Origin: Candidatus Multivoradales bacterium
GTDB taxonomy: Bacteria; Acidobacteriota; Thermoanaerobaculia; Multivoradales; J023
Assembly (NCBI GenBank): GCA_965248925.1
Contig: CBDFLE010000006.1
Location: forward strand, 4,800,001-4,864,000
Direction: 5' to 3'
Length of the DNA: 64,000 nucleotides
Shown here: positions 3,817-29,963 of the stretch, piece after piece
How the letters are laid out: each line of letters starts with the position of its first letter
Position numbering within the stretch: the first letter of the stretch is position 1
The notes under the pieces: generated by a model
The model's database searches: none
What the model was told of the DNA's origin: nothing
Seen by the model: the letters and a program-made list of their open reading frames with translations, nothing else
Position numbers and translations under genes: made by a program

Positions 3817-5247
3817 TTGGCAGATCATCGCTGGCTCGGGTCAGGAATCTCCAGCGTGTTGTTCAAACCTCTCTCCAGCCGATCCGTTGTCCTCGTCCTG
3901 GCGTCGGTCGTTCTGCTGTGGGGTTGTGAGCAGCCATCGCCTACCCCCGAGCGGATCTTCGACCGCCCGCCGGTGATCCTGATCGACATCGACACCCTGC
4001 GTGCCGACCACCTCGGCTGCTATGGCTACGAGCGTGACACCAGCCCCAACATCGATCGCTTGGCGGAGCAGTCAGTGCGTTTCAACTGGACCTTCAGCCA
4101 GGCTCCTAACACGCCGCCGTCGCAGACTTCGATCCTCACCTCGCTCTATCCCACTGCCCACGGCCGTACAGGCGACAAAAAGCAGCTCGCGAGTGAAGTC
4201 ACCACCCTGGCCGAAGCGCTAGCGGCGGCCGGTTATGCCACCGCGGCGTTTGTCGATGGTGGCTTGATGGCGGCTGGCTTCGGTCTCGAACAGGGCTTTG
4301 AGATCTATGACGACGAGGCCGGTCATCTCAAGAAAATCGGCCCCAAGGTAGACGCTTGGCTGGCCGCTCGGACCGATCCGCGGCCCTTCTTTCTGCTGAT
4401 CCACACCTACGACGTGCATTCCCCCTACGAGCTGTCGCCCGAGCCTCATCGCTCGCGCTACCTGGAGGGGTTGGAGCCGCCTGCGGAATACTTCCGCCGC
4501 AACGTCTCGAAGGTGATGAAAGAGACCTGGGATCGGCGTTTCGAGACTCCGCCGCCGCAGCTCAGCGCGGTCGAGCTGGCCTGGGTCAAGGCGCTCTATG
4601 ATGGCGGTATCCGCCACGTCGACAGCTGGGTTGGAGAACTCGAAGCCGAGCTCCGCCGGCTGGGGTTGTGGGAGCCGTCGTTGGTGATCTTCATTTCTGA
4701 CCATGGTGACGAGCTGGGCGAGCATCAAGATCTATTCCATGAGCGGCTCTACGCGCCAGTGACCCGCATTCCGCTGCTGATCAAGTTTCCCCACCAACGG
4801 GGCGCCGCCGCGCCTCGCCATGGGGTGGTCGAGGCGCTGGCCGAGTCGATCGACTTGATGCCCACGGTGCTAGAGACCGTCGCCGTGGCCGTGCCTGGCG
4901 GTTTGCACGGTGAAAGTCTGCTGCCGGTGATCGATGGCGATGCCAGGGGCCGCCAAGTGGCGATCAGTGAATCCCCCTACCGTGGTCGTCGCATCGCATT
5001 GGCGACCGCTGATTTTCGCTTGCTCTACACGGTCCGGGATGACCGCACCGAACTCTACGATTACCGCCGCGACCCGCTCGAGTTGGTCGACCTCGCGGCC
5101 GATCATCCGAAGGTTGAGCGGCGACTGCGAAAAGGCGTGCGGCGCTGGAACCGTCATATCGAGCAGTACCGTCGCCAATCGACCGAGATCGACAACTTGA
5201 AAGCCGAGACCCTGGAGCAGCTGCGGGCTCTGGGCTATCTCGACTAG
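3817..5247 (+). CDS. Sulfatase-like / alkaline-phosphatase-superfamily lipoprotein
   Basis: ILIDIDTLRADHLG, TPPS motif, HTYDVHSPY, ISDHGDE, C-terminal LRALGY; lipobox LWGC. Confidence 0.85.
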   Translation: MADHRWLGSGISSVLFKPLSSRSVVLVLASVVLLWGCEQPSPTPERIFDRPPVILIDIDTLRADHLGCYGYERDTSPNIDRLAEQSVRFNWTFSQAPNTPPSQTSILTSLYPTAHGRTGDKKQLASEVTTLAEALAAAGYATAAFVDGGLMAAGFGLEQGFEIYDDEAGHLKKIGPKVDAWLAARTDPRPFFLLIHTYDVHSPYELSPEPHRSRYLEGLEPPAEYFRRNVSKVMKETWDRRFETPPPQLSAVELAWVKALYDGGIRHVDSWVGELEAELRRLGLWEPSLVIFISDHGDELGEHQDLFHERLYAPVTRIPLLIKFPHQRGAAAPRHGVVEALAESIDLMPTVLETVAVAVPGGLHGESLLPVIDGDARGRQVAISESPYRGRRIALATADFRLLYTVRDDRTELYDYRRDPLELVDLAADHPKVERRLRKGVRRWNRHIEQYRRQSTEIDNLKAETLEQLRALGYLD

Positions 5248-6736: not shown

Positions 6737-8212
6737 TTAGGGCATGGCAGCCGACCAGGCCGTGGTGTCGCCCCCTTCAAAGCCATTGGCGAAGATCTCC
6801 GCATCGAGGCGCAGGCGCAGGTAGTAGACGTTTTCCTCGCCGGCAAAAGTGGCGGAGTAGGCAATGTGCGCGCCCAGCGAGTCGGAGATCATGTCGTAGT
6901 AATCGCCGATCTTCTGCTGCTGGGGAAATCCCAGATGTGGATCAAAGAGGGGTGATAGCGCCCGGTTGGTCGACCAAGTGAGGCCGCCATCGCTCGACGA
7001 AGCATAGTATAGCTCCGAGGCAAAGGCGCCGCCGGGGCCAAAATCAGCGGCGTTCCGGGTGTCATTCCAGATTGCATCCAGGCGGCCGTCGGGAGCCACC
7101 GCCAGAGTGCCAAACCACTGCCAGGCGTTGGTGGCGCCATCGTCATTAAGAGTAATCGGCGCGCTCCAGGTCAAGCCGCCGTCGCTGCTGCGGGCAAAGC
7201 GCACATCCAGCGGATCTGGCCCAGGGGGATCGACCGAGGCCAGCAGATAGACGTCACCGCGGCTGCGGCTGGGCAGTGGACTGGTGTCGACGGCGATCCA
7301 CACCTGGCCGAGCAAGCCGCCCGGATTTGGACCGCTCGAAACGATCAGAGCCCCTCCCAGATCCACCGTCGCCAGCTGCTCGAAGGCCAGCGTCGCGCCA
7401 TCGTCGGTGGCGTTGGTCGAGCGGCTGACGACGACCTCGGCGAACGTGGCGCCAGCACCCGCGACGTAGACCTCGCCATCGAGACCCACGGCGGTGACTC
7501 CGAACACTGGTTGACCAGGAATCTGGACCGGGTTTTCGAACGACAGAACAGCATCATTCGAGCGATTGGCGATGTCGTCGCCACAGCAGCCAAAAAACGG
7601 TGACCAAGCGGCATAGAAATTCCCCGCTCCGGCACTCACGCCGAGATCGATCTCCACCCACGCCTTATCGCCACCAAAGGCAAACACCGGCGCCTCCCAG
7701 CTGGTGCCGCCGTCGATCGAGCGAAAGCTATCGCACTGCAACCCGCCACCGGGAAGACTCAAGCTGTAGTAGTAAAAATTACCCAGCTGGTCAGCCACCA
7801 GCACCGGGTCCGAGCGGAAAGTGCCAGATTCGATCTCCCCCGCCGTCCAGCTGAACCCCCCGTCCGCCGAGGCAGCGAAACCCGCCTCGCGAAAATCGCT
7901 GAGAATGCTGTCGAACTGCCGCCAGCCGACCACAATCCGCTGCGGGTCGTTGGGATCCACCGCCAGCGAGGGTTCGTTAGCGGCATCGCCGAGAATGTCC
8001 TGGCCGCTGCCATCGACATTCACTTGCACACTGGTAAAGGGGCCCCGCACCACCTTCACCACCGGTGCGACCCGCCGCATCTTTGGCGGAATCGGCTGGT
8101 GAGGATCCCCCTGCACTTCCAAAGGCCCCAGATCGCGGGGACTGAGGGCGGAGTCTTGGGCGAAGGCGGGGGTAGAGACCAGGAGAGCCAGGACAATCGG
8201 CAGGATTCGCAT
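6737..8212 (-). CDS. Secreted BNR/Asp-box (sialidase-like) beta-propeller protein
   Basis: Signal peptide; repeated SxDGGxTW Asp-boxes; IGDY motif; C-terminal IFANGFEGGDTTAWS tail. Confidence 0.8.
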   Translation of the reverse strand: MRILPIVLALLVSTPAFAQDSALSPRDLGPLEVQGDPHQPIPPKMRRVAPVVKVVRGPFTSVQVNVDGSGQDILGDAANEPSLAVDPNDPQRIVVGWRQFDSILSDFREAGFAASADGGFSWTAGEIESGTFRSDPVLVADQLGNFYYYSLSLPGGGLQCDSFRSIDGGTSWEAPVFAFGGDKAWVEIDLGVSAGAGNFYAAWSPFFGCCGDDIANRSNDAVLSFENPVQIPGQPVFGVTAVGLDGEVYVAGAGATFAEVVVSRSTNATDDGATLAFEQLATVDLGGALIVSSGPNPGGLLGQVWIAVDTSPLPSRSRGDVYLLASVDPPGPDPLDVRFARSSDGGLTWSAPITLNDDGATNAWQWFGTLAVAPDGRLDAIWNDTRNAADFGPGGAFASELYYASSSDGGLTWSTNRALSPLFDPHLGFPQQQKIGDYYDMISDSLGAHIAYSATFAGEENVYYLRLRLDAEIFANGFEGGDTTAWSAAMP

Positions 8213-8505
8213 GCGGCGGAGGATATCGCGAATCTGAGATGAGTCCCGATATGCCGTGCGGGATCGTCAGCCGATTTTGCTGACTGCGAGCCGAGCACGC
8301 TGGCTGGTTGTCAAGATGACGGGGATTCCGCTACAGTAGGGTTTCCAACTATTTGGTTGAGAAGGAATGAACAGCGGCGCGGGGGGCCTCGGCCGGTTAA
8401 TCGGCGAGTCCTGAGCGCATTCGGGCGGCTTCTGCGCTGTAGAAAATGGACTGATGTATCTCTGGAGTGACAACTGCTAACTCGTCTACCTGGGGGAGAC
8501 GCCAA

Positions 8506-10959
8506 GTGGCCAAGAAAGTATTTCTCAGTTACAGCCATCGAGATCACAAGCTACGCGACCAACTGCTGCGCTTTCTGCGGCCGTTGGAACGCGGCCAGCA
8601 AGTGAGTTATTGGGACGACACTCGGATCGAGACCGGTGAGATCTGGGCAGACGAGATCAACGAAGCCCTCGAAGAAGCGGGGGCGGTGGTGCTGTTGATC
8701 ACCCAAGATTTTCTTGATTCCGATTTCATTGCCGAGCGCGAGTTACCGCGCATTCTGGCGCGAGCCGAGCTTGGCGAACTCACCGTGTTGCCGGTATTTG
8801 CCGGTCATTCGATCGTCGACTTGGTGGAGTACGCTTTTGTTCATCCCGACACTGCGGAGCGACGTCAGGTCAACTTGAGCCGGTTTCAGGGTTACGGCTC
8901 GCCGGACAAACCGTTGGATCGTTGGCCGGCGCGCGAGCGTGCCTTCGTCAAGCTAGCGGGGCGGCTGGCGGCGTTGCTCGGCGATGAATCGGCGGCAGCA
9001 CGGCGCAGCGTGCCGCGGCGGCCGAGGTTGGAATCCCGGATTGAGGCCGATGAGGTCGAGAGTCACTATCAGCTCACTGTCCAGTTGGAACGTGACGGTG
9101 ACGAGGTAGTCAGTCACTATCACTTGCCTGGTGGCGAGCCGATCGGCCCCTACCGCCGGCCGATGCCGGCGGCGCTGGCCGATGCTCATCTGGCGCTCGA
9201 TCGTGCCGAGCCCGCCGCCTTGGAGCGGTGGATCGACAAGGCTCCCGACACCTTGGGCCCGGCCCTCTTCGAATTGCTCTTCGGTGGCAAGGGCGACTGG
9301 CAGCCAATTTTGCGAACGGTTTTCGGCGCCGTCGAGGGCGCCGCCGGGCCGCTCTCTATCCTGGCGCCTTTGCGGTTGCGTATCGCCAGCGCCGACGGCG
9401 ACTTTCTCGCCTTACCGTGGTCGCTCACCTGCTGGGAACAGCATCTGCTGATCGACGATGGCTGGACTTTCTGCACCACCGATCTGCTGGAGCCGACCCT
9501 CGATCTGGCGACCCCGACCCCGGCGCCTTTCTTGATCATCACCCCCCCTCCCGCCACCGGCGCAGTGGCGCTCGATGGCCACCTGGCGGCGTTGCGCGAT
9601 ACCTTGGAACAGGTCTGGCCACGGGGTGAAGAGCTGCCTATCCGGCTCGCCCATTCGCCAGCGGAGGTCGAGCGGGCGTTGGGCGAATTCAAGCCACGGA
9701 TCATCTATCTCCTCGGCGAGTTGGTGGTTCATCGGGGCCGCCCAGGTCTCAAGCTGGGAGGCCGCAAGGTACTACGACTGGTCGACTTGGCGAAGCGCCT
9801 CGGGGGGGCTGCTGGCGGCCCCCAGGCGGTTTTTCTCAACACTCACGGCTTCGTCCGCCCGCCCGCCCCGGCGCAGATCTTCGGCCGCGAGCTACCCCTG
9901 CTGGTGTGGCGCCGCCTGGCCGCTTGGAATGGGCATACCTCACATAGTGCCATCGCCTGGTTACGGGCCTGGCTCGGTGCTGGGGCGGATCCGGTAAAAG
10001 CCCTAGCCGACCTTGCCACCAGGGAACTCAACCCAGAACTTACCGGCCTGTTGATCCATGCCAACTACCGTAGTTGGAAGACCCACCTCTATCTGCCGCC
10101 AGCGCGGCTGCGCGTGGCGCATTTGCTGCTCGATCGGCGGATTCCCAAGGCGATCGTCAACCGGGAAATCACCGAGCTGGTGCGCTCGGATAGCCGGCGC
10201 GTGTTGGCCCTGGTGGCCTATGGCGACCCCGGCACCGGGGTCGAGCTGCACTGGGAGCAGCTGCAGCACGATCTTGACCTGGAAGCCAAGAATGTCGAGA
10301 TCGACTTCCACCAGTTATCGATTCCTGAAGAGCGGCCGGCCGCGGCCGATGCGATGCAGCGCAGTTTGGAGGAAGCCCTGGCCCTAGATCTGGATGCTCT
10401 GCCGGGAGAAGGCCCGCGCGATCTGTTGCTCCGCCGCGCGCCCCGCGCGGTGGGCGATGACAAAGCGGTGCTGTGGCTGGTCTGGGGGACCTTTGGTCAT
10501 GGTGACGAGCATCAGCCACCGCTCAAGCCGCAGCAGCTTGAGGCCTGGCTGCGTTTCGTGGCCGAGTACCTGGGCCACTACTGCCCGGCCACTCTGCGGG
10601 TGGTGTGCTTTTTGGCACTGGAGGTCGATAGCCGGGGCAGAAAACGCTTGCAAACAGCTCTCGGCGAGCTGCGCCGCCGGCCTTGGGCGAAGAGCCGCGA
10701 CTTCCGTTTTGGCAACGCTTTGGCTTTGAGCACGGTGCCCGAAGATGAGTTGCAAGATTTTCTCAAAGATTCGCGCAACTCCACCTGCCCCGAACATTTG
10801 GCAGTGGAAGCCGCGCAGCTGATCCACCGAGACAGTGGCGGTCACTTCAAAGCTACCGTAGCGCTGATCGAGGAAGCGGAGAAGGGCTCCTGGCTTGCCC
10901 TGCTCGATCGACTGCGCGGCAGCGAGACCATCGTCGAACTCGACGATGAGGCATTCTGA
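8506..10959 (+). CDS. TIR domain + degenerate CHAT-like domain + inactive STAND (iSTAND-like) protein
   Basis: N-terminal VFLSYSHRD...WDD.RI..GEIW...FLDSDFI..RELP (TIR_2); middle LRLRI...LALPWSL; C-terminal LLLDRR...ALVAYGD...LHWEQL...SGGHF. GTG 8506 follows GGGGGAGA; ORF is open from 8467. Confidence 0.75.
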   Translation: MAKKVFLSYSHRDHKLRDQLLRFLRPLERGQQVSYWDDTRIETGEIWADEINEALEEAGAVVLLITQDFLDSDFIAERELPRILARAELGELTVLPVFAGHSIVDLVEYAFVHPDTAERRQVNLSRFQGYGSPDKPLDRWPARERAFVKLAGRLAALLGDESAAARRSVPRRPRLESRIEADEVESHYQLTVQLERDGDEVVSHYHLPGGEPIGPYRRPMPAALADAHLALDRAEPAALERWIDKAPDTLGPALFELLFGGKGDWQPILRTVFGAVEGAAGPLSILAPLRLRIASADGDFLALPWSLTCWEQHLLIDDGWTFCTTDLLEPTLDLATPTPAPFLIITPPPATGAVALDGHLAALRDTLEQVWPRGEELPIRLAHSPAEVERALGEFKPRIIYLLGELVVHRGRPGLKLGGRKVLRLVDLAKRLGGAAGGPQAVFLNTHGFVRPPAPAQIFGRELPLLVWRRLAAWNGHTSHSAIAWLRAWLGAGADPVKALADLATRELNPELTGLLIHANYRSWKTHLYLPPARLRVAHLLLDRRIPKAIVNREITELVRSDSRRVLALVAYGDPGTGVELHWEQLQHDLDLEAKNVEIDFHQLSIPEERPAAADAMQRSLEEALALDLDALPGEGPRDLLLRRAPRAVGDDKAVLWLVWGTFGHGDEHQPPLKPQQLEAWLRFVAEYLGHYCPATLRVVCFLALEVDSRGRKRLQTALGELRRRPWAKSRDFRFGNALALSTVPEDELQDFLKDSRNSTCPEHLAVEAAQLIHRDSGGHFKATVALIEEAEKGSWLALLDRLRGSETIVELDDEAF

Positions 10960-11013
10960 TGCCACTGCGAGCGGCTCCAAGACCAGTGGTAGCCTCTACG
11001 GCGGAAGCAAACT

Positions 11014-11970
<957 letters not shown>

Positions 11971-11982
11971 GGCCCTGGTCCA

Positions 11983-14823
11983 ATGCTCGATGCCGCCGGC
12001 TTCGACCGCCTGTTGAGTGCCCTGCGGGGCGCCGGCTTGCGGATTGGGGTGGCCGAGGTCGAGCGCCTGCACCGGGTCTTCGAGCTGCGGCCAGCCGGCT
12101 TGGCCGAGCCTGGGCGCTTGGCCTCGTTGCTCGCCGCCGTGGTGGCTAAGTCGGTGGCCGAACGGCGCACGGTGGAGCGTCTCACCGCCAGCTTTCTGGA
12201 TCAGCAGTTGGCCAGCCGTGGGGCTACTCCACGGTTTGGCAAGGGGCGTGGCGAGGAGCGCTCAAGGGCCGCTTGGTGGACCGCGAGACGGCATCTGGGG
12301 TGGTCTCTGCTGGTCGTCGCTGCCTTGGCCATTCTGGTTCCTGAAGTGGTCTATCGGTGGGCTGGCCGACCAACGCCGATTCCTGTGACTCGGGCGAGTC
12401 AAGAGCGGCGTCTTTTGAAGCCCGAGCCAGTTGGCCAGCCTTCTCCGATCCGGTCCACGGAAGACGAGGATTGGCGCAACCCGCCCTTTCCGCAAGACCC
12501 ACCAGGCCCCGACCCCTACCGGCCCCAGGCATACTGGGTCGGTGTGGTGTTGGCCACTCTCGGTGGCGCCGCGTCGCTGGCGTTGCTGGCCTACTTCTAC
12601 CGGCGTCGGGGCCTGCCGGCGGTGCCCGAGTTGGTGCTGCGGCGGGGGCCGAGCCAGGTCTATCTCACGGCGGTCGAGTCCACTTGCCACGAGCTTTTGT
12701 CGGCCGATGCCGAGGATGCCCTGGTCTGGGGGGTCGACCGCTACGTCAGCGAGCAACCCACCCGGCGGCTCGACCTCGATGCCACGGTCGAGGCCACCGC
12801 CCGCGATGCCGGCCTGCCGCGGCTGATTTTCGAGCGGGCGAGCTATCCGCGGGAGGTTTGGCTGTGGCTTGACGAGGCCGCCGGCAGGCCGGAGATCGAG
12901 CGCTTGGCGGCTGAGATCGAGAGTTCCCTGCGTGCCCATGGTCTGCCGGTGGAGCGGGCTACCTTCCGCGGCTTACCCGAACGTCTGCTGGCCGACGATG
13001 GCCGGCTCTTTGCCCCCCGCGATGTCGACGACCGCCGTGACACCGCCTGGGTGGCGGTGCTGACTGACGGCCGGGTGCTGATGCGGCGTTGGGCGGCCGA
13101 TGACCAACGTGCCTCAATCGAGGCTCTGCTGCGCACCCTGGCGGGCTGGCCTCGCCTGGCCTGGGTCGACTTTTCGACCTCGGGCGATGCCCTCGCACCG
13201 CTCACCGATCGCCACTCCCTGCGGCACTTGCAGCCCGAGCAGCTCGCCCACTACCTGGGTGGCGCCGCGCGGCCGGCGCAGCCTGCTGCCATGGCCGCCG
13301 CCGAGCGCGCCTGGGCCGCTGCCACCGCCGTGCCGGCCTCGCCAGTGCCGGTGGCGACCGCTCTGGAGCTACGCCGCCACCTCGGCTTGCCGCCCTCGCC
13401 AAGGGCTCTCGCCGAGCTGCGCGCCGCCGCCCCCGGCCCCCCCGGCCGGCTGGCCTTCTCGTCCAAGCGCCGTGCCAGCTTGCTCGGCTGGCTGGGTCGG
13501 TCCGAGCTGCTCGACCGTCAGGACAACGGCCTTCTGCGGCAATCCCTCGACTTCTGGCGCCACCAGTATGACGGCGAAGCTGCCCGCCGCCAGCAGGCCG
13601 CCGGCTTGCAGATCTGGCAAGACACCCCCTCCGAGCTACGCCTGCGGGCTGAGCGCGCCCTGCTCGATCTGTGGCACCGCCCCGCCGTGGCGGTGGAGCA
13701 GCTCCACGACCTCTACCAGGCCCCCACTCGTGCCTTCATCGAGGGTCAGCTGGCGCTCTATGCCCCCCGTGGCGTGGGCCGTGCCAACGGGCAAGTACCC
13801 CTGCCCTGGCACTGGCGTGATCAGCCCGATCTCGACCGAGCCCGCTGGCAGGAGATGGGCCTCGGCGGCCGCCTGCCTGCCGAGCGCTTGCGCCGCCCCG
13901 GGCGCCTGTGGTTGGCTGCAGCGCTGTGCCTGGGTCTGGGTGTGGTGGGTGGTTCGCAGGCCTGGGAGAAGCGCGGCGAGCTGCGCAGCTACCTGGGTGG
14001 TGTAGAGCTGGTTCATGTTCCGGGCGGTAGCTTCCAAATGGGCACGAGTAAGGAAGACGATCGAGGAGATGATGACGAGCGCCCGCCGCATGAGGTCACC
14101 CTTGAGGAGTTCTGGATCATGCCCTACGAGGCTACCTGGGGCGATCTGCGGCGTGCTCTCACAGCAGAACCTCTGTTGGGCGATCACTTGAGGGAATTCA
14201 CGCGGGTGCTAAGTGCAGCCGTGCGCGAGAGGGTTGCCAGCGAAGATCTCTCCGACTTGGCGAACTACTTGGATTGGCCTTATCGAGATCTCGACTGGCG
14301 AGACAAGGATGAGAAACAGCCGATTGCAGGCGTTTCCTGGCCTGAAGCCCTTGCGATCTGCCAAGCATTGGGGATGCGTCTGCCCACTGAGGCAGAGTGG
14401 GAGTTCGCTTGTCGGGCGAACACAGAGACCGCCTGGTCTTTCGGCGACAAGTCTGAAATAGCAGCAGAATTTGCGGTATTCAACCCTGACCCCTTGGACC
14501 TGCTCGATGGGGAGACTGTAGGGAAGTTCTTCGCTGAGCACAGTCCGTCCCGAGTTGGCAGCAAGCGGGCCAACCCCTGGGGCCTGTACGACTTGCACGG
14601 CAACCTTTTGGAGTGGGTGTGGGATTGGTACGGTGATTACAGCGAAGGCGCTCCACCGAATCCGATAGGCCCTGAAGAAGGCGACTTCCGAGTGCTGCGC
14701 GGGGGCTCGTTCATCGACCCGGCCCAGAACCTGCGCTCCGCGTACCGGCTCAGGTACAGGCCCGGGTTCCGGGACAGGTTCATCGGCTTTCGCTGTGTTC
14801 GATCCCCCCGCCGCCAGCGTTGA
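11983..14823 (+). CDS. vWA-like membrane protein with C-terminal FGE-sulfatase/CLec domain; DGR target 1
   Basis: LR..GLRIGVAE N-terminus, LDLDATVEATAR, WLWLDE and VLTDG vWA-type motifs, three hydrophobic segments; FQMG, RLPTEAEWEFACRA, NPWGLYDLHGN, RVLRGGSF...IGFRCV. Confidence 0.9.
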   Translation: MLDAAGFDRLLSALRGAGLRIGVAEVERLHRVFELRPAGLAEPGRLASLLAAVVAKSVAERRTVERLTASFLDQQLASRGATPRFGKGRGEERSRAAWWTARRHLGWSLLVVAALAILVPEVVYRWAGRPTPIPVTRASQERRLLKPEPVGQPSPIRSTEDEDWRNPPFPQDPPGPDPYRPQAYWVGVVLATLGGAASLALLAYFYRRRGLPAVPELVLRRGPSQVYLTAVESTCHELLSADAEDALVWGVDRYVSEQPTRRLDLDATVEATARDAGLPRLIFERASYPREVWLWLDEAAGRPEIERLAAEIESSLRAHGLPVERATFRGLPERLLADDGRLFAPRDVDDRRDTAWVAVLTDGRVLMRRWAADDQRASIEALLRTLAGWPRLAWVDFSTSGDALAPLTDRHSLRHLQPEQLAHYLGGAARPAQPAAMAAAERAWAAATAVPASPVPVATALELRRHLGLPPSPRALAELRAAAPGPPGRLAFSSKRRASLLGWLGRSELLDRQDNGLLRQSLDFWRHQYDGEAARRQQAAGLQIWQDTPSELRLRAERALLDLWHRPAVAVEQLHDLYQAPTRAFIEGQLALYAPRGVGRANGQVPLPWHWRDQPDLDRARWQEMGLGGRLPAERLRRPGRLWLAAALCLGLGVVGGSQAWEKRGELRSYLGGVELVHVPGGSFQMGTSKEDDRGDDDERPPHEVTLEEFWIMPYEATWGDLRRALTAEPLLGDHLREFTRVLSAAVRERVASEDLSDLANYLDWPYRDLDWRDKDEKQPIAGVSWPEALAICQALGMRLPTEAEWEFACRANTETAWSFGDKSEIAAEFAVFNPDPLDLLDGETVGKFFAEHSPSRVGSKRANPWGLYDLHGNLLEWVWDWYGDYSEGAPPNPIGPEEGDFRVLRGGSFIDPAQNLRSAYRLRYRPGFRDRFIGFRCVRSPRRQR
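14692..14817 (+). repeat. DGR variable repeat VR1
   Basis: 126 nt identical to 15904-16029 except 12 positions, all A in the template. Confidence 0.96.
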
Positions 14824-14863
14824 TCCTTGTTTTTTGACCCTTGATGCCTTGCTCTCTGCCTTC

Positions 14864-14888
14864 CGCGGCCCTGCGCAGCAGGGTCGCG
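14864..14888 (+). other. DNA hairpin/cruciform downstream of VR1 (candidate DGR target-recognition element)
   Basis: CGCGGCCCTGC-GCA-GCAGGGTCGCG: 11-bp stem with one G-T mismatch and a 3-nt GCA loop, ~40 nt after the stop. Confidence 0.7.
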
Positions 14889-14959
14889 CGAATTTCGAAA
14901 ACAATCCCAGTTTCCTGACAAAGTAGCGGTTGAGATTCGCACTATGTTAGGAATCGGCC

Positions 14960-15517
14960 ATGCGATTGAGCCTCGATGAAGCCGCCACCCGACTGGGCAA
15001 GACTACCCATCAGCTGCGCTATCTGATCAAGACCGGGCGCCTACAGGCGAGCAAGGTAGCGGGCCGTTGGCAGCTCGAATCCTCTGCGCTGCCGCTCAGT
15101 GAAGGCCAGCAGAAGGCTGTCGCCCGCCGCCAGCGGCAGCTGCGGGCGGCGGTGGAGGAGGGGCTCGGGCTGGCCGGCAGCGAACGCCCGCCGCGCTACT
15201 CGGTGCGCGATCTGAAGGCCTTTCAGATCGCTCTGCCAGTGTACGACAAAGCTCGGAGCGCGCTGGGTGGGGAGCATCCGGCGGTGGTCTCGCTGCGCCA
15301 GGTGCTGGTGCTGCTGTCGCGGGGCTGCCACCGCTACGATCGTGCCGACAAGGCCGAGGCCTACCGCCAGGCTCGCGACGCCGCCAGCCTGGCGGTGTGC
15401 GAGCTGCTGCTGGCCGAAGCGTCGGTCGGTGCCGCGTTGGTACAGCAGATCGAGCAGGAGCTGATGGCCGCTTTCGCCGGCCTGCTGCGGCGCTGTGAGG
15501 CGAAGCGCTCCCGGTGA
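14960..15517 (+). CDS. Excisionase/MerR-like HTH fused to a four-helix-bundle (IVP/Avd-like) domain
   Basis: LSLDEAATRLGKT..QLRYLIKTGRLQASKVAGRWQL (HTH_17-like); then DLKAFQIA...LSRG..R...AYRQARDAA, resembling four-helix-bundle proteins; GTGA overlap with avd. Confidence 0.7.
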   Translation: MRLSLDEAATRLGKTTHQLRYLIKTGRLQASKVAGRWQLESSALPLSEGQQKAVARRQRQLRAAVEEGLGLAGSERPPRYSVRDLKAFQIALPVYDKARSALGGEHPAVVSLRQVLVLLSRGCHRYDRADKAEAYRQARDAASLAVCELLLAEASVGAALVQQIEQELMAAFAGLLRRCEAKRSR

Positions 15518-15843
15518 GCTGCCGCGCGCCTCTCTACACTGACGCTTTCGAGCTTGCCCGCTGGCTGGCCAAACACTTCGCTGACGATCCGCGGCCGCTC
15601 GCCCGCCGCATCTGCCACACCAGCTTGGACTTGCTCGAAGCAGTGACTCTGGCGCTCGGCCGGCAACAGCGCGAAGAGCGGGTCGAGCAAGCTGACGAAA
15701 GCCTCGCCAAGCTGCGCACCCAGCTGCGCCTGGCGGCCGAGCTGGGTGCTCTGTCTGATCGCCAACTGCTCCACGCCCTGGGCTTGGCCGATACTATCGG
15801 CCGCCAGCTCGGCGGCTGGCTGCGCTCGATGGGGCCAGTGTGA
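15514..15843 (+). CDS. avd: DGR accessory variability determinant (Avd-like four-helix bundle)
   Basis: 109 aa helical protein with LAKLRTQLRLA.ELG.L...IGRQLGGWL motif, directly upstream of TR. Confidence 0.88.
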   Translation: MSCRAPLYTDAFELARWLAKHFADDPRPLARRICHTSLDLLEAVTLALGRQQREERVEQADESLAKLRTQLRLAAELGALSDRQLLHALGLADTIGRQLGGWLRSMGPV

Positions 15844-15903
15844 AGGCCGCTGTGAAAAGCGTTGTAAGATCCCTGCGCCGCGCCCGAACAACGCTTTCGA
15901 CCC

Positions 15904-16029
15904 GTGCTGCGCGGGGGCTCGTTCATCAACCCGGCCCAGAACCTGCGCTCCGCGAACCGGAACAGGAACAGGCCCGAGAACCGGAACAGGAACATCGGCT
16001 TTCGCTGTGTTCGATCCCCCCGCCGCCAA
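15904..16029 (+). repeat. DGR template repeat (TR), non-coding RNA template
   Basis: Eight AAC codons and 26 adenines in the VR reading frame; lies between avd and RT; matches both VRs except at A. Confidence 0.96.
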
Positions 16030-16150
16030 CATGCCGCCGGCAGGGCGCCATGCAGGGCGCGGCCGGGGCCTGGCCCCGAAACACCCGGCCCGCCCGCACC
16101 AGTAGTCCCTGGCGACCGTCCGGGCGGGCCATCTTCTCTGGGGACTAGGA

Positions 16151-17140
16151 ATGCGCTCAGTGGCGGTCGGATCGTTTGCACGGCTGAGCGATGTCGCTGC
16201 GCTGTGGAAGGCTTGGCGCCGTTGCCGTCGAGGCAAGCGGCGCCAGCCGCGAGTGGCGGCTTTTGACCTCGATGTGGACCGTCACATCTTCAGCCTTCAC
16301 CGGCAGTTGCGCCGCGGTGGCTGGTGGCCGCGGCCTTTCCGCTTGCAGGTAGTGCAAGATCCAAAGACCCGACTGGTGGCGGCACCGGCGCTTCAAGATC
16401 GCATCGTCCAAGATTCTCTGCTAGCCGAGATCGGGCCGACCTACGAGCGTTCCTTCGTCGACCAGAGCTTCGCTTGCCGCACCGGCCGCGGGCCGCAGCG
16501 GGCGGCGCTGGCTTACTTGAAAGCAATGCGCACCCACCGTTTTCGGATGATCCTCGATGTGCGGCGATACTTCGCTTCGATTGACCATGCGATCTTGCTG
16601 CGACTGTTGGCCCGTCGGCTGCGCGATGCTGACACAGTGGAGCTGCTGCGACGGATGCTCGAAGCCGGGGGGCGGGTCTACCACACCGCCCTGGCCAAGC
16701 GAGTGCTGGGGTTGGAAGGAGAGCCATTGCCGCTGGGGTGTGGGCTGCCGCTGGGCTCACACCTGAGCCATTGGTCGGGTGGCCTCTACCTCGACGGACT
16801 CGATCACCATGTGTTGCGCCAGCTACGGCCGGGGGCCTACCTGCGCTACATGGACGACATGGCGCTATTCGCCAACTCGCGCGGTGAGCTCGAAGACCTG
16901 CGCGTGGCGATCAGCGACTGGCTGTGGCAGCAGCGCGGCTTGCGGCTGAAACGCTCCGGCGACAGCGTGCGGCCGACCAGCGAGGCCGCCACCTACCTGG
17001 GCTGGCGGCTCAGCCGTGCCGGCGTGCTGCCAGGACCCAAGGCCAAGCGGCGGCTGCGCGAGAGGTTGCGAACCGCTCAGGACCCGAGGCGGTTAGCGCG
17101 GCAGCTGCGGTCCTACCGTGGGCTTTTGTTGACAATTTAA
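16151..17140 (+). CDS. DGR reverse transcriptase
   Basis: DPKTRLVAAP..QDRIVQ, SFACRTGRG, LDVRRYFASIDH, GLPLGSHLSH, YLRYMDD, YLGW. Confidence 0.95.
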   Translation: MRSVAVGSFARLSDVAALWKAWRRCRRGKRRQPRVAAFDLDVDRHIFSLHRQLRRGGWWPRPFRLQVVQDPKTRLVAAPALQDRIVQDSLLAEIGPTYERSFVDQSFACRTGRGPQRAALAYLKAMRTHRFRMILDVRRYFASIDHAILLRLLARRLRDADTVELLRRMLEAGGRVYHTALAKRVLGLEGEPLPLGCGLPLGSHLSHWSGGLYLDGLDHHVLRQLRPGAYLRYMDDMALFANSRGELEDLRVAISDWLWQQRGLRLKRSGDSVRPTSEAATYLGWRLSRAGVLPGPKAKRRLRERLRTAQDPRRLARQLRSYRGLLLTI

Positions 17141-17267
17141 GAAGATTTACCAGCTTGTCAGCAAAATTTTCAAAAAAGTTTCCAAACAGATGGGGAATTT
17201 CTTCAATCTTGCCGGCAAATTGTCACCTGTTCTGTCAGCTACTAGACAAAGTTCAAAGGGACAAGGA

Positions 17268-18311
17268 TCAAGGCTGGCGGCGGGGGGATCGAACACAGCG
17301 AAAGCCGATGAGCCAGTCCCGGAACTCGGGCCCGCCCCTGAACCGGATCGCGGAGCGCAGGAGCTGGGCCGGGTCGAAGAACGAGCCCCCGCGCAGCACT
17401 CGGGACTTGCCTTCGTCGGGACCACTCGGGTCTTCCCGAGCTTCAGCGCTGTACTCGCCGTACCAATCCCAGACCCACTCCCAGACGTTGCCGTGCATGT
17501 CGTAGAGAGCCCAGGGATTGGGCTTCTTGGTCCCGACCGGCTGTGGCGCATTGTCCGAGTTGTCGGTGTACCAGGCGTATTTGCCGAGCTTTTCGGAGTT
17601 ATCGCCAAAGGACCACGGCGTCTCGGTGCCGGCCCGGCAGGCATACTCCCACTCTGCCTCGCTGGGCAGGCGGAAACCGTCCGCATCGCGCTGCCACTGG
17701 GGAGGCTGGTCGCCTTCGAGCAGGTAGGCCGGTTGCAGGCGGTGGAGCTTCGACAGCTGGTTGCAAAACTCGGCTGCATCTTCCCAGCTGACCTGGTTCA
17801 CCGGTCGGTCGTCGGCCTCGCCCTCCGGCCAACCGGGGTCTTCTCCGACGACTTTCTGGTAGAGCTGCCGGGTGACCGGCGTGGCCATCATCTCAAAGGC
17901 CGCCAGGGTGACCGGGTGGGCAGGCTTCTCGTCGTCGCGGGCTTGAGGATCGTCGTCGGCCGAGCCCATGGTGAAGCTGCCAGCTGGGATTGGCACCATC
18001 TTCACTTGCAAATCGGCTGGGATCTCGAAATCTGGCGGCTTGTCCTCATCCTCCTCTTCTTCCTCTTGCTCTTCCTCCAACACCGCCACCGGCTCGCTCG
18101 ACCAGGCGAGTAGCGCCGCGGCTGCCACCAGCGCCAGCGCCGTGGCGAAGGCCGCCCACTGCCATGATTCGGCCCAGTGGAGCAGCCAGCTGCCGGCTAA
18201 GCCGCCCAAGGCCAGGCCGAGGGCGATGGCCAGCCAGGTCGGCAGGTAGTCGAGCCGGCGCAGCAGGCCGCGACGGGGAGCGGAAGAGGGACTGGCGGTG
18301 GCGGTGCTCAC
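17268..18311 (-). CDS. Membrane-anchored FGE-sulfatase/CLec domain protein; DGR target 2
   Basis: Two hydrophobic helices, acidic linker, FTMGS, FRLPSEAEWEYACRAG, NPWALYDMHGNVWEWVWDWY, RVLRGGSF...IGFRCV. Confidence 0.92.
   Translation of the reverse strand: MSTATASPSSAPRRGLLRRLDYLPTWLAIALGLALGGLAGSWLLHWAESWQWAAFATALALVAAAALLAWSSEPVAVLEEEQEEEEEDEDKPPDFEIPADLQVKMVPIPAGSFTMGSADDDPQARDDEKPAHPVTLAAFEMMATPVTRQLYQKVVGEDPGWPEGEADDRPVNQVSWEDAAEFCNQLSKLHRLQPAYLLEGDQPPQWQRDADGFRLPSEAEWEYACRAGTETPWSFGDNSEKLGKYAWYTDNSDNAPQPVGTKKPNPWALYDMHGNVWEWVWDWYGEYSAEAREDPSGPDEGKSRVLRGGSFFDPAQLLRSAIRFRGGPEFRDWLIGFRCVRSPRRQP
17274..17399 (-). repeat. DGR variable repeat VR2
   Basis: Reverse complement matches TR over 126 nt with 17 differences, all at template adenines. 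Confidence 0.96.
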
Positions 18312-18347
18312 CTGGTCAGCTTATCGCGTGGGCGGGGTGGCCAAGCT

Positions 18348-18545
18348 TCATTGCAAAACGGTGAGGCCCAGGCCGCGGAAATCCTGGTCGAAGGCGAGGC
18401 AGGGCACGCTTTGAAGCGCTGTGGTCACGACAGCGAAGGAGATGGCGTCGCAGAGCGACAGTCGGTGGTCTTTGCCGTAGGCGCGAAAAACCCGTTCGGC
18501 CTCGGCGCGGACGGTTTCGCCGAGATGGGTGCCAGGCAAATAATC
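18348..18545 (-). pseudogene. C-terminal remnant of a VapC/PIN-domain toxin
   Basis: LSLCDAISFAV....AFDQDF..LGLTVL is the PIN C-terminal half; no N-terminal xxDT motif upstream. Confidence 0.65.
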
Positions 18546-18559
18546 TATTGTGGCATATA

Positions 18560-18588
18560 TTGACACAGAAGAGGAAAGCGAACATGCT
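18560..18588 (+). promoter_or_regulatory. Sigma70-like promoter for parDE
   Basis: TTGACA (18560-18565), 17 nt spacer, CATGCT (18583-18588); ATG follows 6 nt later. Confidence 0.55.
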
Positions 18589-18594
18589 CGCGGT

Positions 18595-18939
18595 ATGGCC
18601 AACCGACAGACTCTGAACGTTTCGCTGCCCCCAGCCCAAGAGCATTTCGTCCGTGATCAAGTCGCGGTGGGCCGCTATCGCACCGCTAGCGAGGTGGTGC
18701 GCCACGGCTTGCGTCTGCTCGAAGAAACCGAGCATCGACGCTTGATGGAGAAGTGGCTCTACAAAGATCTTTCGTCGGACGAGCTGGCGCTGTTGCCGGA
18801 TGAGCACAGGGAACGTGTGCAGGCCCATTTTCGCAGCTTGGTCGAGGATGCAGTCCTGGACATCAAGGGGGGGCACGTTGCCGATGGGCCGAGCGCAGTG
18901 AAGCGGCTGCGGCAGGGTATTGAAGCTCGCCAGAAATGA
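18595..18939 (+). CDS. ParD-family antitoxin (ribbon-helix-helix)
   Basis: TLNVSLPP..E.FV..QV..GRY.TASEVVRHGLRLLEE. Confidence 0.88.
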   Translation: MANRQTLNVSLPPAQEHFVRDQVAVGRYRTASEVVRHGLRLLEETEHRRLMEKWLYKDLSSDELALLPDEHRERVQAHFRSLVEDAVLDIKGGHVADGPSAVKRLRQGIEARQK

Positions 18940-19241
18940 TCCGCTATCTGCTGACCGCGACTGCCGAGGGCGAGCTCGGTGAGCATCTTCGTTTCATCTC
19001 AGAAGGCAGCGGCAAGACGCGAGCGCTGCACGTTCTCGAAAACTTCGAAGAGGCCTTTGAGAGGATTGCCGCATCGCCTGGGATTGGCTACAGGAGAGAG
19101 CAACTCACCGGCCCGGAGCTGCGCTGGTGGCCGGTCTTCCGCTTCTTGGTTCTTTACGATCCCACATCCAAGCCGTTGACCGTATTGCGGGTCCTGCACG
19201 GCGCGCGTGATCTTGAGCGCATTTTTCAGCTCGATAGCTAG
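18936..19241 (+). CDS. ParE/RelE-family toxin
   Basis: YLLT..AE.EL, PGIGYRRE.L, YD....LTVLRVLHGARDL; ATGA overlap with antitoxin. Confidence 0.9.
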   Translation: MIRYLLTATAEGELGEHLRFISEGSGKTRALHVLENFEEAFERIAASPGIGYRREQLTGPELRWWPVFRFLVLYDPTSKPLTVLRVLHGARDLERIFQLDS

Positions 19242-19306
19242 TTGAGCTGGTACGACGAGAGTGCGAGCGGCAAGCGGGGAAGGGCGCCTCTCAGCGCAAT
19301 ACAAAG

Positions 19307-19333
19307 CGGGCGCCCCGGCTAGCGGAGCGCCCG
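19307..19333. terminator. GC-rich hairpin between convergent genes
   Basis: CGGGCGCCCCG-GCTAG-CGGAGCGCCCG; no strong U-tract. Confidence 0.35.
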
Positions 19334-19356
19334 GTTGGGAGGTTCTAGTCGTTACT

Positions 19357-19920
19357 TCAACGCAGCGGGCAGCTGTTGCTGAGCACGCCGATGGCGCTCG
19401 ACTGGCCTTTGCAGGGGCGGGCGATCGACAGCTGCGCCTGGCCGCTCCACAGCACCGAGCCGATGTCGTCGCCGCTCTCATTGTCGCGGGCCGCTTTCGG
19501 CGCGGGGGTGATCTTTACTTGTAGCAGGTCGTCGTCTTGGAGGAAGACCGAAATCGGGTCGCAGAGCAAGGGCGGATCAATGCAGCCCATCGGGATGCCT
19601 TCGAGGGTGACGCAGAGCTTGCCCGGCGGGCAGTTGCAGCCGAAGGCGGCGGTCTGCGGCGGGTAGGCCTGGATGTCGAAATGCTGACGCTCGACTTCTT
19701 GACCATTGACCAGGAAGGAAACGTCAGTCGACAGGTCCACCGGACCGCGGGTCGGGTTGGCGGTGGCCGAGAAGAAGGCGGTCACCATGGTGTTGCCGTC
19801 GGCGGTGGGGGCGGCGGAGATGGCTTCCACCATCCGGTTGACTTCGTTCTTGCTTTGGGCGGCGGCCGGCAGAGTACAGATCAAGGCGATTAGGGCGAGG
19901 ACTAGAATCTGGGTGCGCAT
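19357..19920 (-). CDS. Secreted cysteine-rich hypothetical protein
   Basis: ATG 19920 after AAGGA; signal peptide ending AAA-Q; CNCPPGKLC...C...C...C...C. Confidence 0.7.
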   Translation of the reverse strand: MRTQILVLALIALICTLPAAAQSKNEVNRMVEAISAAPTADGNTMVTAFFSATANPTRGPVDLSTDVSFLVNGQEVERQHFDIQAYPPQTAAFGCNCPPGKLCVTLEGIPMGCIDPPLLCDPISVFLQDDDLLQVKITPAPKAARDNESGDDIGSVLWSGQAQLSIARPCKGQSSAIGVLSNSCPLR

Positions 19921-20050
19921 GGTTTTGTTCCTTATCCGAAGGGTCGTTGTTTTCGCTGGCACGGCGCGGGCCGTGTCGCTTTCGGGATCAGGAACGAACG
20001 GGGGGTGAGTTTCTCCTCAAAAATTCTCGATATTTCCTGGTGTCGTCTTC

Positions 20051-28595: not shown

Positions 28596-29963
28596 TCACA
28601 AATACCCCAACGCCTGCAAACGCTCGCGCTCTTCTTCAGTCATCGCCACCTCCCGCTGCTCGAGCCCTTCTCCCAGCTTGGGCTGGGCCTGGCGCCAGGC
28701 TTCGAGGGCGGCGTGCATGCGCTCGACACGGCGGGGGAAGGTCTTGGAGGCATCGCGGCGCTCGTGGGGGTCGCGGTAGAGGTCGAAGAGGCGGCGGCTG
28801 CCGTCGCGGGTCGATTCGATCAACTTGAAGCGTCGGTCGCGCAAGCTGTAGAGCAGGCCCGAATACTGGGAGAAGACGTAGCCGCTGGCCCGTTGGGGGT
28901 CGTGCTTCAGGTCGAGCAAGTTGCGGCCTTGCATCCAGCTGGGTGCTTCGAGGCCGGCGGCGGCGAGCAGGGTGGGGGCGATGTCGATGGTGCTTACCAA
29001 GCGGTGATCTACCAGAGCTTCTTCGACTCCCGGACCGCTCAAGATCAGTGGCACATGGAGCAATTCTTCGAACAGGGTTAGACGGTGCAGCAGACCACCG
29101 TGCTCGCCGAATTCTTCGCCGTGGTCGGAGGAGATGATCACCAGGCAGTTGTCGAGGAAGCCGATCTGGCGCAGCTCGCTGAAGAGTTCGGCGAGTACAT
29201 CGTCGGTGTAGCGCAAGCCGCGGTCGTATTGAGCCGAGAGGTGCTGTAGATCAGCGCCGATCAGCTCTCTGGCGCGGTGACGGTATTCGAGCAGGTTGGC
29301 GCTGGTCGCCGCCAGACCGGCGGTGGCACCGAAGAGGTCTTGGTAGCCCTCTGGTGGCTCGTAAGGTGAATGCACCTCGTAGGTGTGGAAGAAGACGAAG
29401 CTGGGTCGCTCGGGGCGGTGGTGGCGGCGCAGCATGCGCAGCAGCCTGTGCCGGCCCGAGTCGATTCCTTCGCCTTCGTCGTCGAAGTGGTCGAAGCCTT
29501 GGCCAAAACCCAGCCGCGGGGTCATGAAGCCGCCATCGGTCACCGCCAGGGTGCGATAGCCGTGCTCCTGCAGCAGTTCTTGCACCATGGTTAACTCGTC
29601 GGGGACCCGGTGTTGGGACCAGCCGTCGGGGCGGTGCTCGAAGCTCACCCGATGACTCTCCTGGTACAGCGACGACAGCAGGGTGGTGTGGGATGGAGGG
29701 GTGCCGTGGGTGTTGACGAAGGCATTCTCGAAGCGCAGCCCGCCGCGCGCCAGCTGATCGAGGAAGGGGGTGGTTTGGCGGGCGTAGCCGTAAGCTCCCA
29801 GGCGGTCGGCGCGCAGGGCGTCGAGGGAGATCAGCAGCAGGTTGGGGGCTGAGGCTGGCGGTGGCGGTGGCTCGCTGCAACCGGTGCTTAGCGTAGCAAG
29901 GATCCACAGCAGAGCGCATGCCGAGGCGGATCTCGACCCACTGCGCTTCATGGGTTCTCTCAT
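28596..29963 (-). CDS. Sulfatase-like lipoprotein
   Basis: PNLLLISLDALRAD, TPPSH, HTYEVHSPY, SSDHGEEF, LQALGYL; lipobox STGC. Confidence 0.85.
   Translation of the reverse strand: MREPMKRSGSRSASACALLWILATLSTGCSEPPPPPASAPNLLLISLDALRADRLGAYGYARQTTPFLDQLARGGLRFENAFVNTHGTPPSHTTLLSSLYQESHRVSFEHRPDGWSQHRVPDELTMVQELLQEHGYRTLAVTDGGFMTPRLGFGQGFDHFDDEGEGIDSGRHRLLRMLRRHHRPERPSFVFFHTYEVHSPYEPPEGYQDLFGATAGLAATSANLLEYRHRARELIGADLQHLSAQYDRGLRYTDDVLAELFSELRQIGFLDNCLVIISSDHGEEFGEHGGLLHRLTLFEELLHVPLILSGPGVEEALVDHRLVSTIDIAPTLLAAAGLEAPSWMQGRNLLDLKHDPQRASGYVFSQYSGLLYSLRDRRFKLIESTRDGSRRLFDLYRDPHERRDASKTFPRRVERMHAALEAWRQAQPKLGEGLEQREVAMTEEERERLQALGYL

Follow-up and report, generated by a model that had tools for sequence, protein, structure and literature searches.

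Background

Loci of the diversity-generating retroelements (DGRs) of clade 5A, as described in Dore 2024 (PMC10907252), are found in multicellular or aggregate-forming bacteria. They have a long target with an N-terminal extension in which no domain is predicted, a MoxR gene immediately before it, a second target that is short and consists only of a C-type lectin (CLec) domain, TIR or peptidase genes nearby, and several DGRs in one genome. At two loci of that account a helix-turn-helix (HTH) gene was read as standing in for the VMAP effector. In the MoxR-vWA-iSTAND systems of Kaur 2020 (PMC7159879), the vWA component has a helical domain at its N-terminus, often transmembrane segments, and most commonly FGS at its C-terminus (about 22%); the iSTAND proteins bear domains of TIR, caspase-like or adaptor type, and the paper also connects such systems with DGRs. 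Here we describe a DGR locus in a 64,000-nucleotide stretch of a Candidatus Multivoradales bacterium (assembly GCA_965248925.1, contig CBDFLE010000006.1, positions 4,800,001 to 4,864,000; henceforth the window) that fits both of these descriptions. With a probability of roughly 85%, it is an intact chromosomal DGR whose longer target (target 1) is the degenerate-vWA part of a conflict system of the MoxR-vWA-iSTAND type, most likely acting as a diversifiable sensor.

The window shares with clade 5A the pair of a MoxR gene and a long target, a CLec-only second target (target 2), a TIR gene, an HTH gene and three DGR-like loci per genome, and its relatives include loci in Accumulibacter and Competibacter-like bacteria; membership in that clade is by layout only. 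In contrast to clade 5A as described, where it is a stand-in for the VMAP effector, the HTH gene travels here with avd, the template repeat (TR) and the reverse transcriptase (RT) gene. Beyond that description, the extension of the long target is modelled as a degenerate vWA domain and the TIR protein as a TIR/CHAT-like/STAND-like protein. The iSTAND systems of Kaur et al. are matched by the MoxR ATPase, by a predicted vWA-like protein with an N-terminal helical domain, transmembrane segments and a C-terminal FGS/CLec domain, and by a protein combining a TIR domain with predicted caspase-like and inactive STAND-like ones. The window differs from them in that the Pfam iSTAND and vWA models are unmatched, so that the assignment is by predicted folds and motifs; in that the metal ion-dependent adhesion site (MIDAS) is degenerate and the caspase-like domain apparently catalytically dead; and in that the DGR cassette has an additional, free-standing target. 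The layout is thus already in print (PMC10907252, PMC7159879); what is added here is a fold reading of two unannotated regions, the membership of the HTH gene in the cassette, and a phased TTG array downstream of the diversified gene ends.

Results and discussion

One template and two gene ends diversified at adenines

Between the two target genes, the cassette has the order HTH, avd, TR, a 121-nucleotide (nt) spacer and RT on the forward strand (Table 1). An earlier note on this DNA had taken the region for a complete DGR, in which a single TR goes with two convergent targets altered specifically at adenines, and the repeats, Avd, RT and CLec domains bear this out. Realignment of the TR with the variable repeats (VRs) VR1 and VR2 reproduced exactly the coordinates, mismatch counts, number of adenines and AAC codons given there, and the same TR/VR pairs were recovered independently by repeat finding. 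Every mismatch falls on a TR adenine (29/29) and all other positions are identical in the three copies (100/100), as the note had claimed. By the hypergeometric distribution, mismatches confined by chance to the 26 adenines among the 126 positions have a probability of 5e-10 in the case of VR1 and 7e-15 in that of VR2. At the TR-A positions the two VRs agree with each other in 14/26 cases, and in the 138 nt directly upstream of the VRs the paralogous lectin genes agree at 102/138 positions (36 differences). Given that VR1 and VR2 are identical at the non-A positions but lie next to diverged sequence, they appear to have been homogenised by a process that spares only the adenine columns.

All eight AAC codons of the TR are in frame with both target genes, and the substitutions fall 17 times at codon position 1, 10 times at position 2 and twice at position 3. 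With 16 TR codons able to vary, each target has a computed repertoire of ~10^13.9 protein variants, and a stop codon cannot arise from any A-to-N change in the TR. Both VRs stop two codons short of the stop codon of their target. The last mismatch, at position 126, is an A in the TR and a G in both VRs, and it is fixed likewise (CCAA in the TR, CCAG in the VRs) in five related cassettes examined. This position is more likely the first base outside the homology of TR and VR than the site of a mutagenised adenine; the mutagenic differences would then number 11 in VR1 and 16 in VR2. A 34-nt adenine-poor 3' segment is identical in the TR and the VRs, with divergence starting at position 126.

In several respects the element resembles that of Bordetella phage BPP-1 (mtd-avd-TR-brt). 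Both have an Avd and an RT, adenine-specific transfer from TR to VR, AAC-rich codons in the template, and a 3' segment that is GC-rich and poor in adenine; in both, the VR lies at the 3' end of a C-type lectin gene and has an inverted repeat downstream. Unlike its phage-borne counterpart, the present element is chromosomal, has two convergent targets and carries an extra HTH gene. Furthermore, the TR and VRs have no internal mismatches of the kind that distinguish IMH from IMH* (initiation of mutagenic homing) and match through the last shared base, and the hairpin lies ~48 nt past the VR, behind the phased TTG array. DGRs with two targets account for 50/372 in the survey of Wu et al. (PMC5758913). 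The earlier note had also envisaged remote targets; probing the genome with the TR of the window revealed none, the only matches being the TR and a VR of a second DGR.

Table 1. Parts of the DGR locus and adjoining genes, with positions counted in the window
Feature	Position	Strand	Description
TIR protein, 830 amino acids (aa)	8467-10959	+	TIR aa 18-113, CHAT/separase-like ~199-544, STAND/AAA+-like ~547-820
MoxR-type AAA+ ATPase, 318 aa	11014-11970	+	Pfam AAA_5 7.8e-14; Walker A GEPGTGKT, Walker B LIDEID
Target 1, 946 aa	11983-14823	+	Pfam FGE-sulfatase PF03781 2.1e-48, aa 675-940; ends in VR1
VR1	14692-14817	+	final 42 codons but two of target 1; 12 mismatches with TR
Post-VR1 flank	14819-14887	+	five TTG at 14820, 14827, 14834, 14841, 14849 (steps 7, 7, 7, 8 nt), then hairpin
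HTH protein, 185 aa	14960-15517	+	HTH_17 (excisionase/MerR-like) N-terminus, conserved helical C-terminal part; first cassette gene
Avd, 109 aa	15514-15843	+	Pfam bAvd 50.6 bits (cut-off 40)
TR	15904-16029	+	126 positions, 26 A, eight AAC; non-coding, between avd and RT
TR-to-RT spacer	16030-16150	+	conserved sequence, predicted stems, invariant 9-bp GC stem
DGR RT, 329 aa	16151-17140	+	RVT_1, YMDD at 233-236
Post-VR2 flank	17204-17273	-	four TTG at 17271, 17264, 17256, 17249 (steps 7, 8, 7 nt), then palindrome 17204-17222
Target 2, 347 aa	17268-18311	-	Pfam FGE-sulfatase PF03781 5.7e-57, aa 104-341; ends in VR2
VR2	17274-17399	-	final 42 codons but two of target 2; 17 mismatches with TR

RT, Avd and spacer RNA

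The TR is flanked, as the earlier note had it, by avd and the gene for a YMDD RT. Avd scores 50.3 bits with the NCBIfam model DivGenRetAVD, below its cut-off of 80. The RT matches Pfam RVT_1 at 3.2e-14 (53.6 bits, cut-off 29.6), has no maturase or endonuclease extension, and its top relative of solved structure is the Bordetella DGR RT (8ub7, E 1e-23), which is only slightly ahead of a group II RT (1e-20). It was typed by family-model scores and by its relatives of solved structure. In the spacer between TR and RT, RNAalifold predicted 37 pairs across five cassettes, 10 of them with compensatory change, and this predicted structure is likely the counterpart of the spacer part of the BPP-1 DGR RNA. 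A search of positions 8000-20000 against Rfam at E <= 1 recovered no family, with intron and retron RNAs among those sought, and a promoter and terminator scan of 14600-17500 gave nothing exceeding shuffled sequence.

Target proteins

The CLec-fold domains of FGE-sulfatase type in which the earlier note had placed the VRs are indeed found at the ends of both targets (Table 1). The same subtype of the C-type lectin fold is seen in Treponema denticola TvpA (2y3c), which matches the profile of the target family at 2.9e-48. TvpA is reportedly a lipoprotein devoid of vWA or membrane-spanning modules and unlinked to MoxR or TIR genes. The targets were also considered as formylglycine-generating or EgtB, SenA, PvdO or GldK enzymes, and this was rejected: all NCBIfam scores lie far under their cut-offs (for example, EgtB 82.6 against 360 and GldK 106.1 against 350), and the fold alone is shared.

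Upstream of this domain, target 1 has a conserved N-terminal region of ~75 aa, hydrophobic segments at 105-123, 185-203 and 642-660 by hydropathy, and a middle part comprising a vWA-like region (~233-433) followed by a helical region; the third hydrophobic segment precedes the FGE-sulfatase/CLec domain. Residues 205-650 have no match in Pfam, NCBIfam or PADLOC and fall into unnamed Atlas clusters, and most of their 117 homologues end in an FGE-sulfatase domain. In one homologue (P0054), OmpA and NMT1-like domains replace the FGE-sulfatase domain, an arrangement that fits the peptidoglycan-associating effectors listed by Kaur et al.

The middle part of target 1 was modelled with AlphaFold (AF2) from 112 sequences, with a predicted local distance difference test score (pLDDT) of 92.9. 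Residues 28-228 of this model (~233-433 of the protein) matched best in VIA the MIDAS domain of human MDN1 (Z 8.6), the vWA domain of NorD bound to the MoxR-class protein NorQ (Z 8.4) and a bacterial vWA domain (Z 8.4), with root-mean-square deviations of 3.2-3.6 over 130-151 residues; Foldseek likewise returned NorD (E 3e-3, probability 0.98). The family keeps the "TDG" of vWA domains (LTDGR, 360-364) and has DEAAG (297-301) in place of DxSxS. Searched against PDB sequences, the target-1 family profile found FGE/CLec chains only and no vWA chain. Going by the modelled fold, it is probable that residues 233-433 constitute a degenerate vWA domain.

Target 2 is shorter, with hydrophobic segments at 26-44 and 53-71, an acidic linker and then the FGE-sulfatase/CLec domain. 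Four nucleotides before its start ends an open reading frame (ORF) of 186 aa (18316-18876, reverse strand) with no family match. This ORF fails a filter on coding composition, which asks for a GC content at third codon positions (GC3) above 0.72 and for GC3 > GC1 > GC2; it probably does not represent a gene, and target 2 may actually start elsewhere than at the position given. Neither this ORF nor another at 19357-19962 (reverse strand) has a family match or a tblastn match in 39 related loci, and they are not counted as parts of the element. PADLOC gave no family match for Avd, either target or the 186-aa ORF.

MoxR ATPase and TIR protein

The gene for the MoxR-type ATPase ends 12 nt before the start of target 1. 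Its top sequence relatives of solved structure are the AAA domains of midasin (1.5e-9), and it matches Pfam bpMoxR at E 0.03 only. Further upstream lies the gene for the 830-aa TIR protein, whose TIR domain is recognized by Pfam TIR_2 (1.4e-11) and by the PADLOC model for ThsB-like TIR domains (2.6e-20). The region beyond the TIR domain was modelled with AF2 from 23 sequences (pLDDT 84.6). In VIA, residues 69-412 of the model matched the TPR-CHAT protein Csx29 (Z 19.8) and separase (Z 18.8), with a Foldseek E of 1e-8, and residues 417-690 matched ORC/Cdc6 (Z 12.2) and AAA+/STAND folds (Z 10-12). The P-loop of the STAND-like domain reads GDPGTGVE, without the Walker A lysine.

The Pfam iSTAND model PF19995 leaves this protein unmatched; a Pfam CHAT match is seen in 2/23 of its relatives, and its neighbour cluster in Atlas (score 0.90) is 79% CHAT and 60% iSTAND. 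The VMAP ternary system of Kaur 2020 was ruled out as an alternative assignment, since neither VMAP-C nor VMAP-M matches the 830-aa protein at E <= 5 or its 23 relatives at E <= 0.1. From the modelled folds, the TIR protein is likely the third, iSTAND-type component and the effector of the system. In its relatives the N-terminal TIR domain is sometimes absent or swapped for another short domain. At five loci, Myxococcales-type and others (L035, L039, L041, L044 and L052), the CHAT-STAND-like protein begins with a domain of the type LRRVLxDVLxTDxDLxAFC instead of TIR, and this may be of the adaptor/Death-like kind described by Kaur et al.

Conservation of the gene order

To place the locus among its relatives, one genome per species was scanned for homologues of target 1, giving 39 related loci whose features were located by tblastn with the window proteins. 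Their hosts include Holophagales, Thermoanaerobaculia, Myxococcales, Competibacteraceae, Accumulibacter, Entotheonella, Phycisphaeraceae, a methanotroph and others. A MoxR gene lies directly upstream on the same strand in 30/39 loci (26/32 of those with at least 2.5 kb of upstream sequence), and a CHAT-STAND-like gene is present in 29/39, with a TIR N-domain detected in 16 of those 29 (the gene is found in 24/29 loci with at least 4.6 kb upstream). The target-1 module is followed by a CLec domain in 31/39 loci (28/32 with at least 1.5 kb downstream), and a convergent second CLec gene occurs in 22/39 (19/25 with at least 5 kb downstream). RT was detected in 12/39 loci, Avd in 7/39 and HTH in 10/39.

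A TR could be located in five cassettes of the 12 RT-bearing loci, and in each of these both convergent VRs differ from the TR nearly only at A. Counted for the two VRs of each cassette, the A-site differences are 17/19, 16/17, 20/23, 13/19 and 11/16, and the non-A differences 1/0, 0/0, 3/1, 0/1 and 2/0, plus some gaps. Nine loci with at least 5 kb downstream (L020, L025, L026, L027, L029, L031, L033, L039 and L043) have a convergent target pair with no RT, Avd or HTH between the targets or in the fetched flank. The last 135 nt of these targets are VR-like, with identical constant positions and differences in AAC-like slots. Among ten RT-less loci, the last 135 nt of the target ends are far more alike than the preceding 135 nt in 9/10 (for example 115 vs 37, 117 vs 59 and 113 vs 47 identities; the exception is L028), in an ungapped comparison where indels may lower the upstream figures. 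These patterns suggest that such target pairs are served by a template elsewhere or have recently lost their cassette.

An HTH gene in the cassette and a phased TTG array past the VRs

The HTH protein matches Pfam HTH_17 at 2.5e-4, under the cut-off of that model; by hhalign it is unrelated to the Avd family (probability 0.3), and against PDB sequences its family profile returned only the phage excisionase-like Gp37 at E 0.29. All ten related loci with this gene also have RT or Avd, and it occurs in 0/26 loci that have neither. A second copy in the same genome belongs to a cassette on contig C5 with the same HTH-Avd-TR-RT order, whose targets have unrelated N-terminal parts. The gene was also sought in an independent sample of 401 genomes of the phylum, picked without regard to target 1, and matches were found in 6/401, the genome of the window included. 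Outside that genome there were seven matches: four (in two genomes) lie between the end of a CLec gene and an RT gene, and the other three cover only the first 46-67 residues, at loci of 2.6-3.2 kb with no match to a DGR part. We regard the HTH gene as part of the avd-TR-RT cassette and, judging from this co-occurrence, as a candidate lineage-specific DGR accessory gene. In Wu et al. (PMC5758913), the accessory genes listed are avd, HRDC, MSL and CH1, and the term "HTH" is absent.

A further feature follows the VRs. Past each VR lies an array of TTG trinucleotides at steps of 7 or 8 nt, which is followed after VR1 by an imperfect, 10-bp, GC-rich hairpin (14865-14887), ~48 nt past the VR, and after VR2 by a palindrome (Table 1); no such array and hairpin occur downstream of the TR. 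Over 57 target ends (55 from related loci and the two of the window), 58/83 gaps between successive TTG are of 7 or 8 nt, and at least three TTG fall within 48 nt at 27/57 ends, a density seen in 2.6% of random windows drawn from these loci and in 12.5% of shuffled sequences. Wu et al. (PMC5758913) note that, in cases where no difference separates TR from VR before their shared end, recognition must reach downstream. Given that the TR and VRs of the window are identical through their last shared base, recognition would likewise extend downstream, and the flank with the TTG array is the obvious candidate. We know of no description of a phased array after a VR in the literature searched on DGR target recognition, as far as its accessible text goes.

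It is conceivable, if on balance doubtful, that the 185-aa HTH protein reads the TTG array as a hitherto undescribed DGR accessory factor, with donor and recipient in this large cellular DGR lineage told apart by a protein-DNA mark past the VR and not, as in phage BPP-1, by IMH/IMH* mismatches. If true, this would account for the service of two targets by a single cassette here, and show how a distant cassette might supply targets that have none in the fetched flank.

Evidence on activity

Activity was assessed on Logan contigs of four public runs (X1-X4), which come from one sample and one study; such contigs drop rare variants. Three of the runs contain 0.99 of the words of the stretch and are possibly the source of the assembly. 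The contigs break at 14789-14809, 15999-16022 and 17282-17302, which correspond to the shared 3' repeat, and they neither show nor exclude current diversification. One X1 contig of depth 26 carries a 1-nt deletion and a 1-nt insertion relative to the TR, at 15976-15982, and run X4 has a depth of 27 over the TR (bin 15914-16064) with almost nothing else of the locus. These TR-like sequences likely come from a related TR of another organism in the sample.

Alternative explanations

Paralogous gene ends kept alike by gene conversion, next to an RT from a group II intron or retron, would be an altogether different account of the three repeats, and its probability is negligible. The top NCBIfam match of the RT is to a group II RT/maturase model (1e-30), and the group II GsI-IIC RT is its second-best solved relative (1e-20); however, the score with group_II_RT_mat is 107.1 bits against a cut-off of 300 and that with retron_St85_RT 35.3 against 235, so that by these scores the RT does not fall among those groups, a placement that the earlier note had named as evidence against a DGR. 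Moreover, the third repeat copy is non-coding, lies between avd and RT, and accounts through its own adenines for all the differences; an Avd is present, and no intron RNA family matched in the searched region. We also consider it unlikely that the element is a frozen relic, in which a cassette of complete appearance has ceased to retrohome, with VR1 and VR2 left as fixed alleles by past activity. The contigs of X1-X3 give a single VR1 and a single VR2 sequence with no differing letter and no variants listed in the VRs, and X4 has an identical 151-nt VR1 contig, but the loss of rare variants from such contigs, and the origin of all four runs from one sample that possibly yielded the assembly, reduce the weight of this. 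Likewise, the RT has S-H in LGSHLSH (201-207), aligned with IGSLTSQ of the Bordetella RT, where most relatives also have S-Q; since S-H also occurs in 2/8 aligned relatives, and the VRs of these two are A-diversified, we take it for a subclade trait rather than a defect. In nine related loci the target pair persists although the fetched flank has no RT, Avd or HTH; in the window all cassette ORFs are open and both the YMDD and the spacer RNA structure are conserved, in agreement with the earlier note, which held the element to be intact. Finally, none of the 100 non-A positions differs, compared to 36/138 in the adjacent paralogous sequence, and because of this homogenisation across copies recent activity of the element can reasonably be inferred.

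A further possibility concerns not the retroelement but the role of its targets, which might be plain surface or periplasmic binders (adhesins or nutrient binders), with the MoxR and TIR genes unrelated in function. Classic DGR targets such as Mtd and TvpA are binding proteins, the latter with the profile match noted above; both targets here have hydrophobic segments, and the window also contains polysaccharide, sulfatase and outer-membrane genes. Nevertheless, we hold this to be improbable, given that MoxR is directly upstream of target-1 homologues on the same strand in 30/39 related loci across several phyla, that a CHAT-iSTAND-like gene is present in 29/39, that only 12 nt separate MoxR from target 1 in the window, and that the middle of target 1 resembles vWA/MIDAS domains in fold, among them that of NorD in complex with its MoxR-class partner. 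The targets at the other two DGR-like loci of the genome are likewise NACHT, TIR, trypsin or MoxR-linked proteins.

Several observations weigh against the reading that we prefer, of an intact DGR diversifying the vWA-like part of a conflict system, beyond the uniform VR sequences of the contigs. The Pfam vWA, iSTAND, CHAT and VMAP models match none of the proteins of the window, and a Pfam vWA match is found in 0/45 relatives of target 1 at E <= 0.1. The vWA matches of target 1, at Z 8.4-8.6, are in the range that the tool itself calls common without a true match, and its MIDAS is degenerate (DEAAG). The CHAT-like domain of the TIR protein lacks the conserved catalytic residues, the strands of the His and Cys reading YLLGELVV and FLNTHG; together with the P-loop devoid of lysine, this makes the CHAT-like and STAND-like domains look inactive, and leaves TIR as the sole evident catalytic part. 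The topology by hydropathy is ambiguous: the third segment of target 1 scores 1.59 and has basic residues on both sides, and the two segments of target 2 would place its lectin domain in the cytoplasm. The 39 loci were selected by target-1 homology and are kin rather than independent. To our knowledge, no experiment anywhere has shown a sensor or immune role.

Other DGR-like loci in the genome and other genes in the window

The genome has three DGR-like loci with families of adenine-rich repeats; adenine-specific mismatches were checked in the window locus and, by eye, for one pair on contig C5. The C5 locus (~141846-151275; L058: 1846-11275) is the second DGR mentioned above, with an RT 43% and an Avd 44% identical to those of the window. 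It lies between convergent targets of TIR-NACHT-CLec (1109 aa) and Metallophos-NACHT-CLec (1207 aa) architecture; a YhgA-like transposase gene adjoins it, and 300-nt direct repeats ~10.6 kb apart lie around the locus. The third locus, on contig C6 at ~1659700-1667650 (L057: 6720-14644), has all its parts on one strand: a trypsin-like peptidase (521 aa), a MoxR-like AAA_5 ATPase (322 aa), a target of 908 aa that combines a CLec domain with an N-terminal part lacking annotation, an RT, a TR and a 301-aa CLec-only target. Its RT is 32% identical to that of the window and has IGALTSQ and YMDD, its three 134-nt repeat copies are 86-90% identical, and no HTH or Avd homologue was detected there.

Elsewhere in the window, positions 34392-37421 (forward strand) encode a DEAD-box helicase of 1009 aa that contains an MrfA Zn-binding (MZB) domain, has a weak Cas3-like match at its C-terminus, and could act in repair or defence. 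True sulfatase genes occur at 3817-5247 (forward strand) and 28596-29963 (reverse strand) among polysaccharide-synthesis and glycosyltransferase genes, and nothing ties them to the FGE-fold targets.

A proposed mechanism and its implications

On the model of BPP-1, the RT together with Avd would reverse-transcribe the TR RNA, placing random bases opposite template adenines. The cDNA would then replace the last ~125 nt of both target genes, guided by the shared 34-nt adenine-poor 3' segment, while the TTG array and hairpin, which follow the VRs and not the TR, would probably help distinguish recipient from donor. For each C-type lectin domain, the outcome would be a ligand-binding face in up to ~10^14 variants. 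We propose that target 1 spans the membrane, with the variable lectin domain at one end and the vWA-like domain at the other, and is not a free adhesin; binding of a foreign ligand by the lectin domain might then be relayed through the vWA domain to MoxR and on to the TIR effector, as the gene context and the published systems (PMC7159879, PMC10907252) suggest. Target 2 would be a small membrane-anchored lectin diversified from the same template.

The locus is a clean and complete example of its kind, with one template, two targets, every gene open, and relatives in many phyla. If the "domain-less" extension of clade 5A targets is indeed a cryptic vWA domain, these loci would take their place among the iSTAND ternary systems. 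The analysis sharpens the published picture without changing it, and provides testable handles in the probable vWA-MoxR contact within an unannotated region, the HTH gene of the cassette, and the repeat array that may mark recipients. We know of no bench test of any such diversified-receptor system. DGR-diversified lectins wired to MoxR, vWA, TIR and STAND components, as in the window, are the best current candidates for somatically diversified receptors in bacteria.

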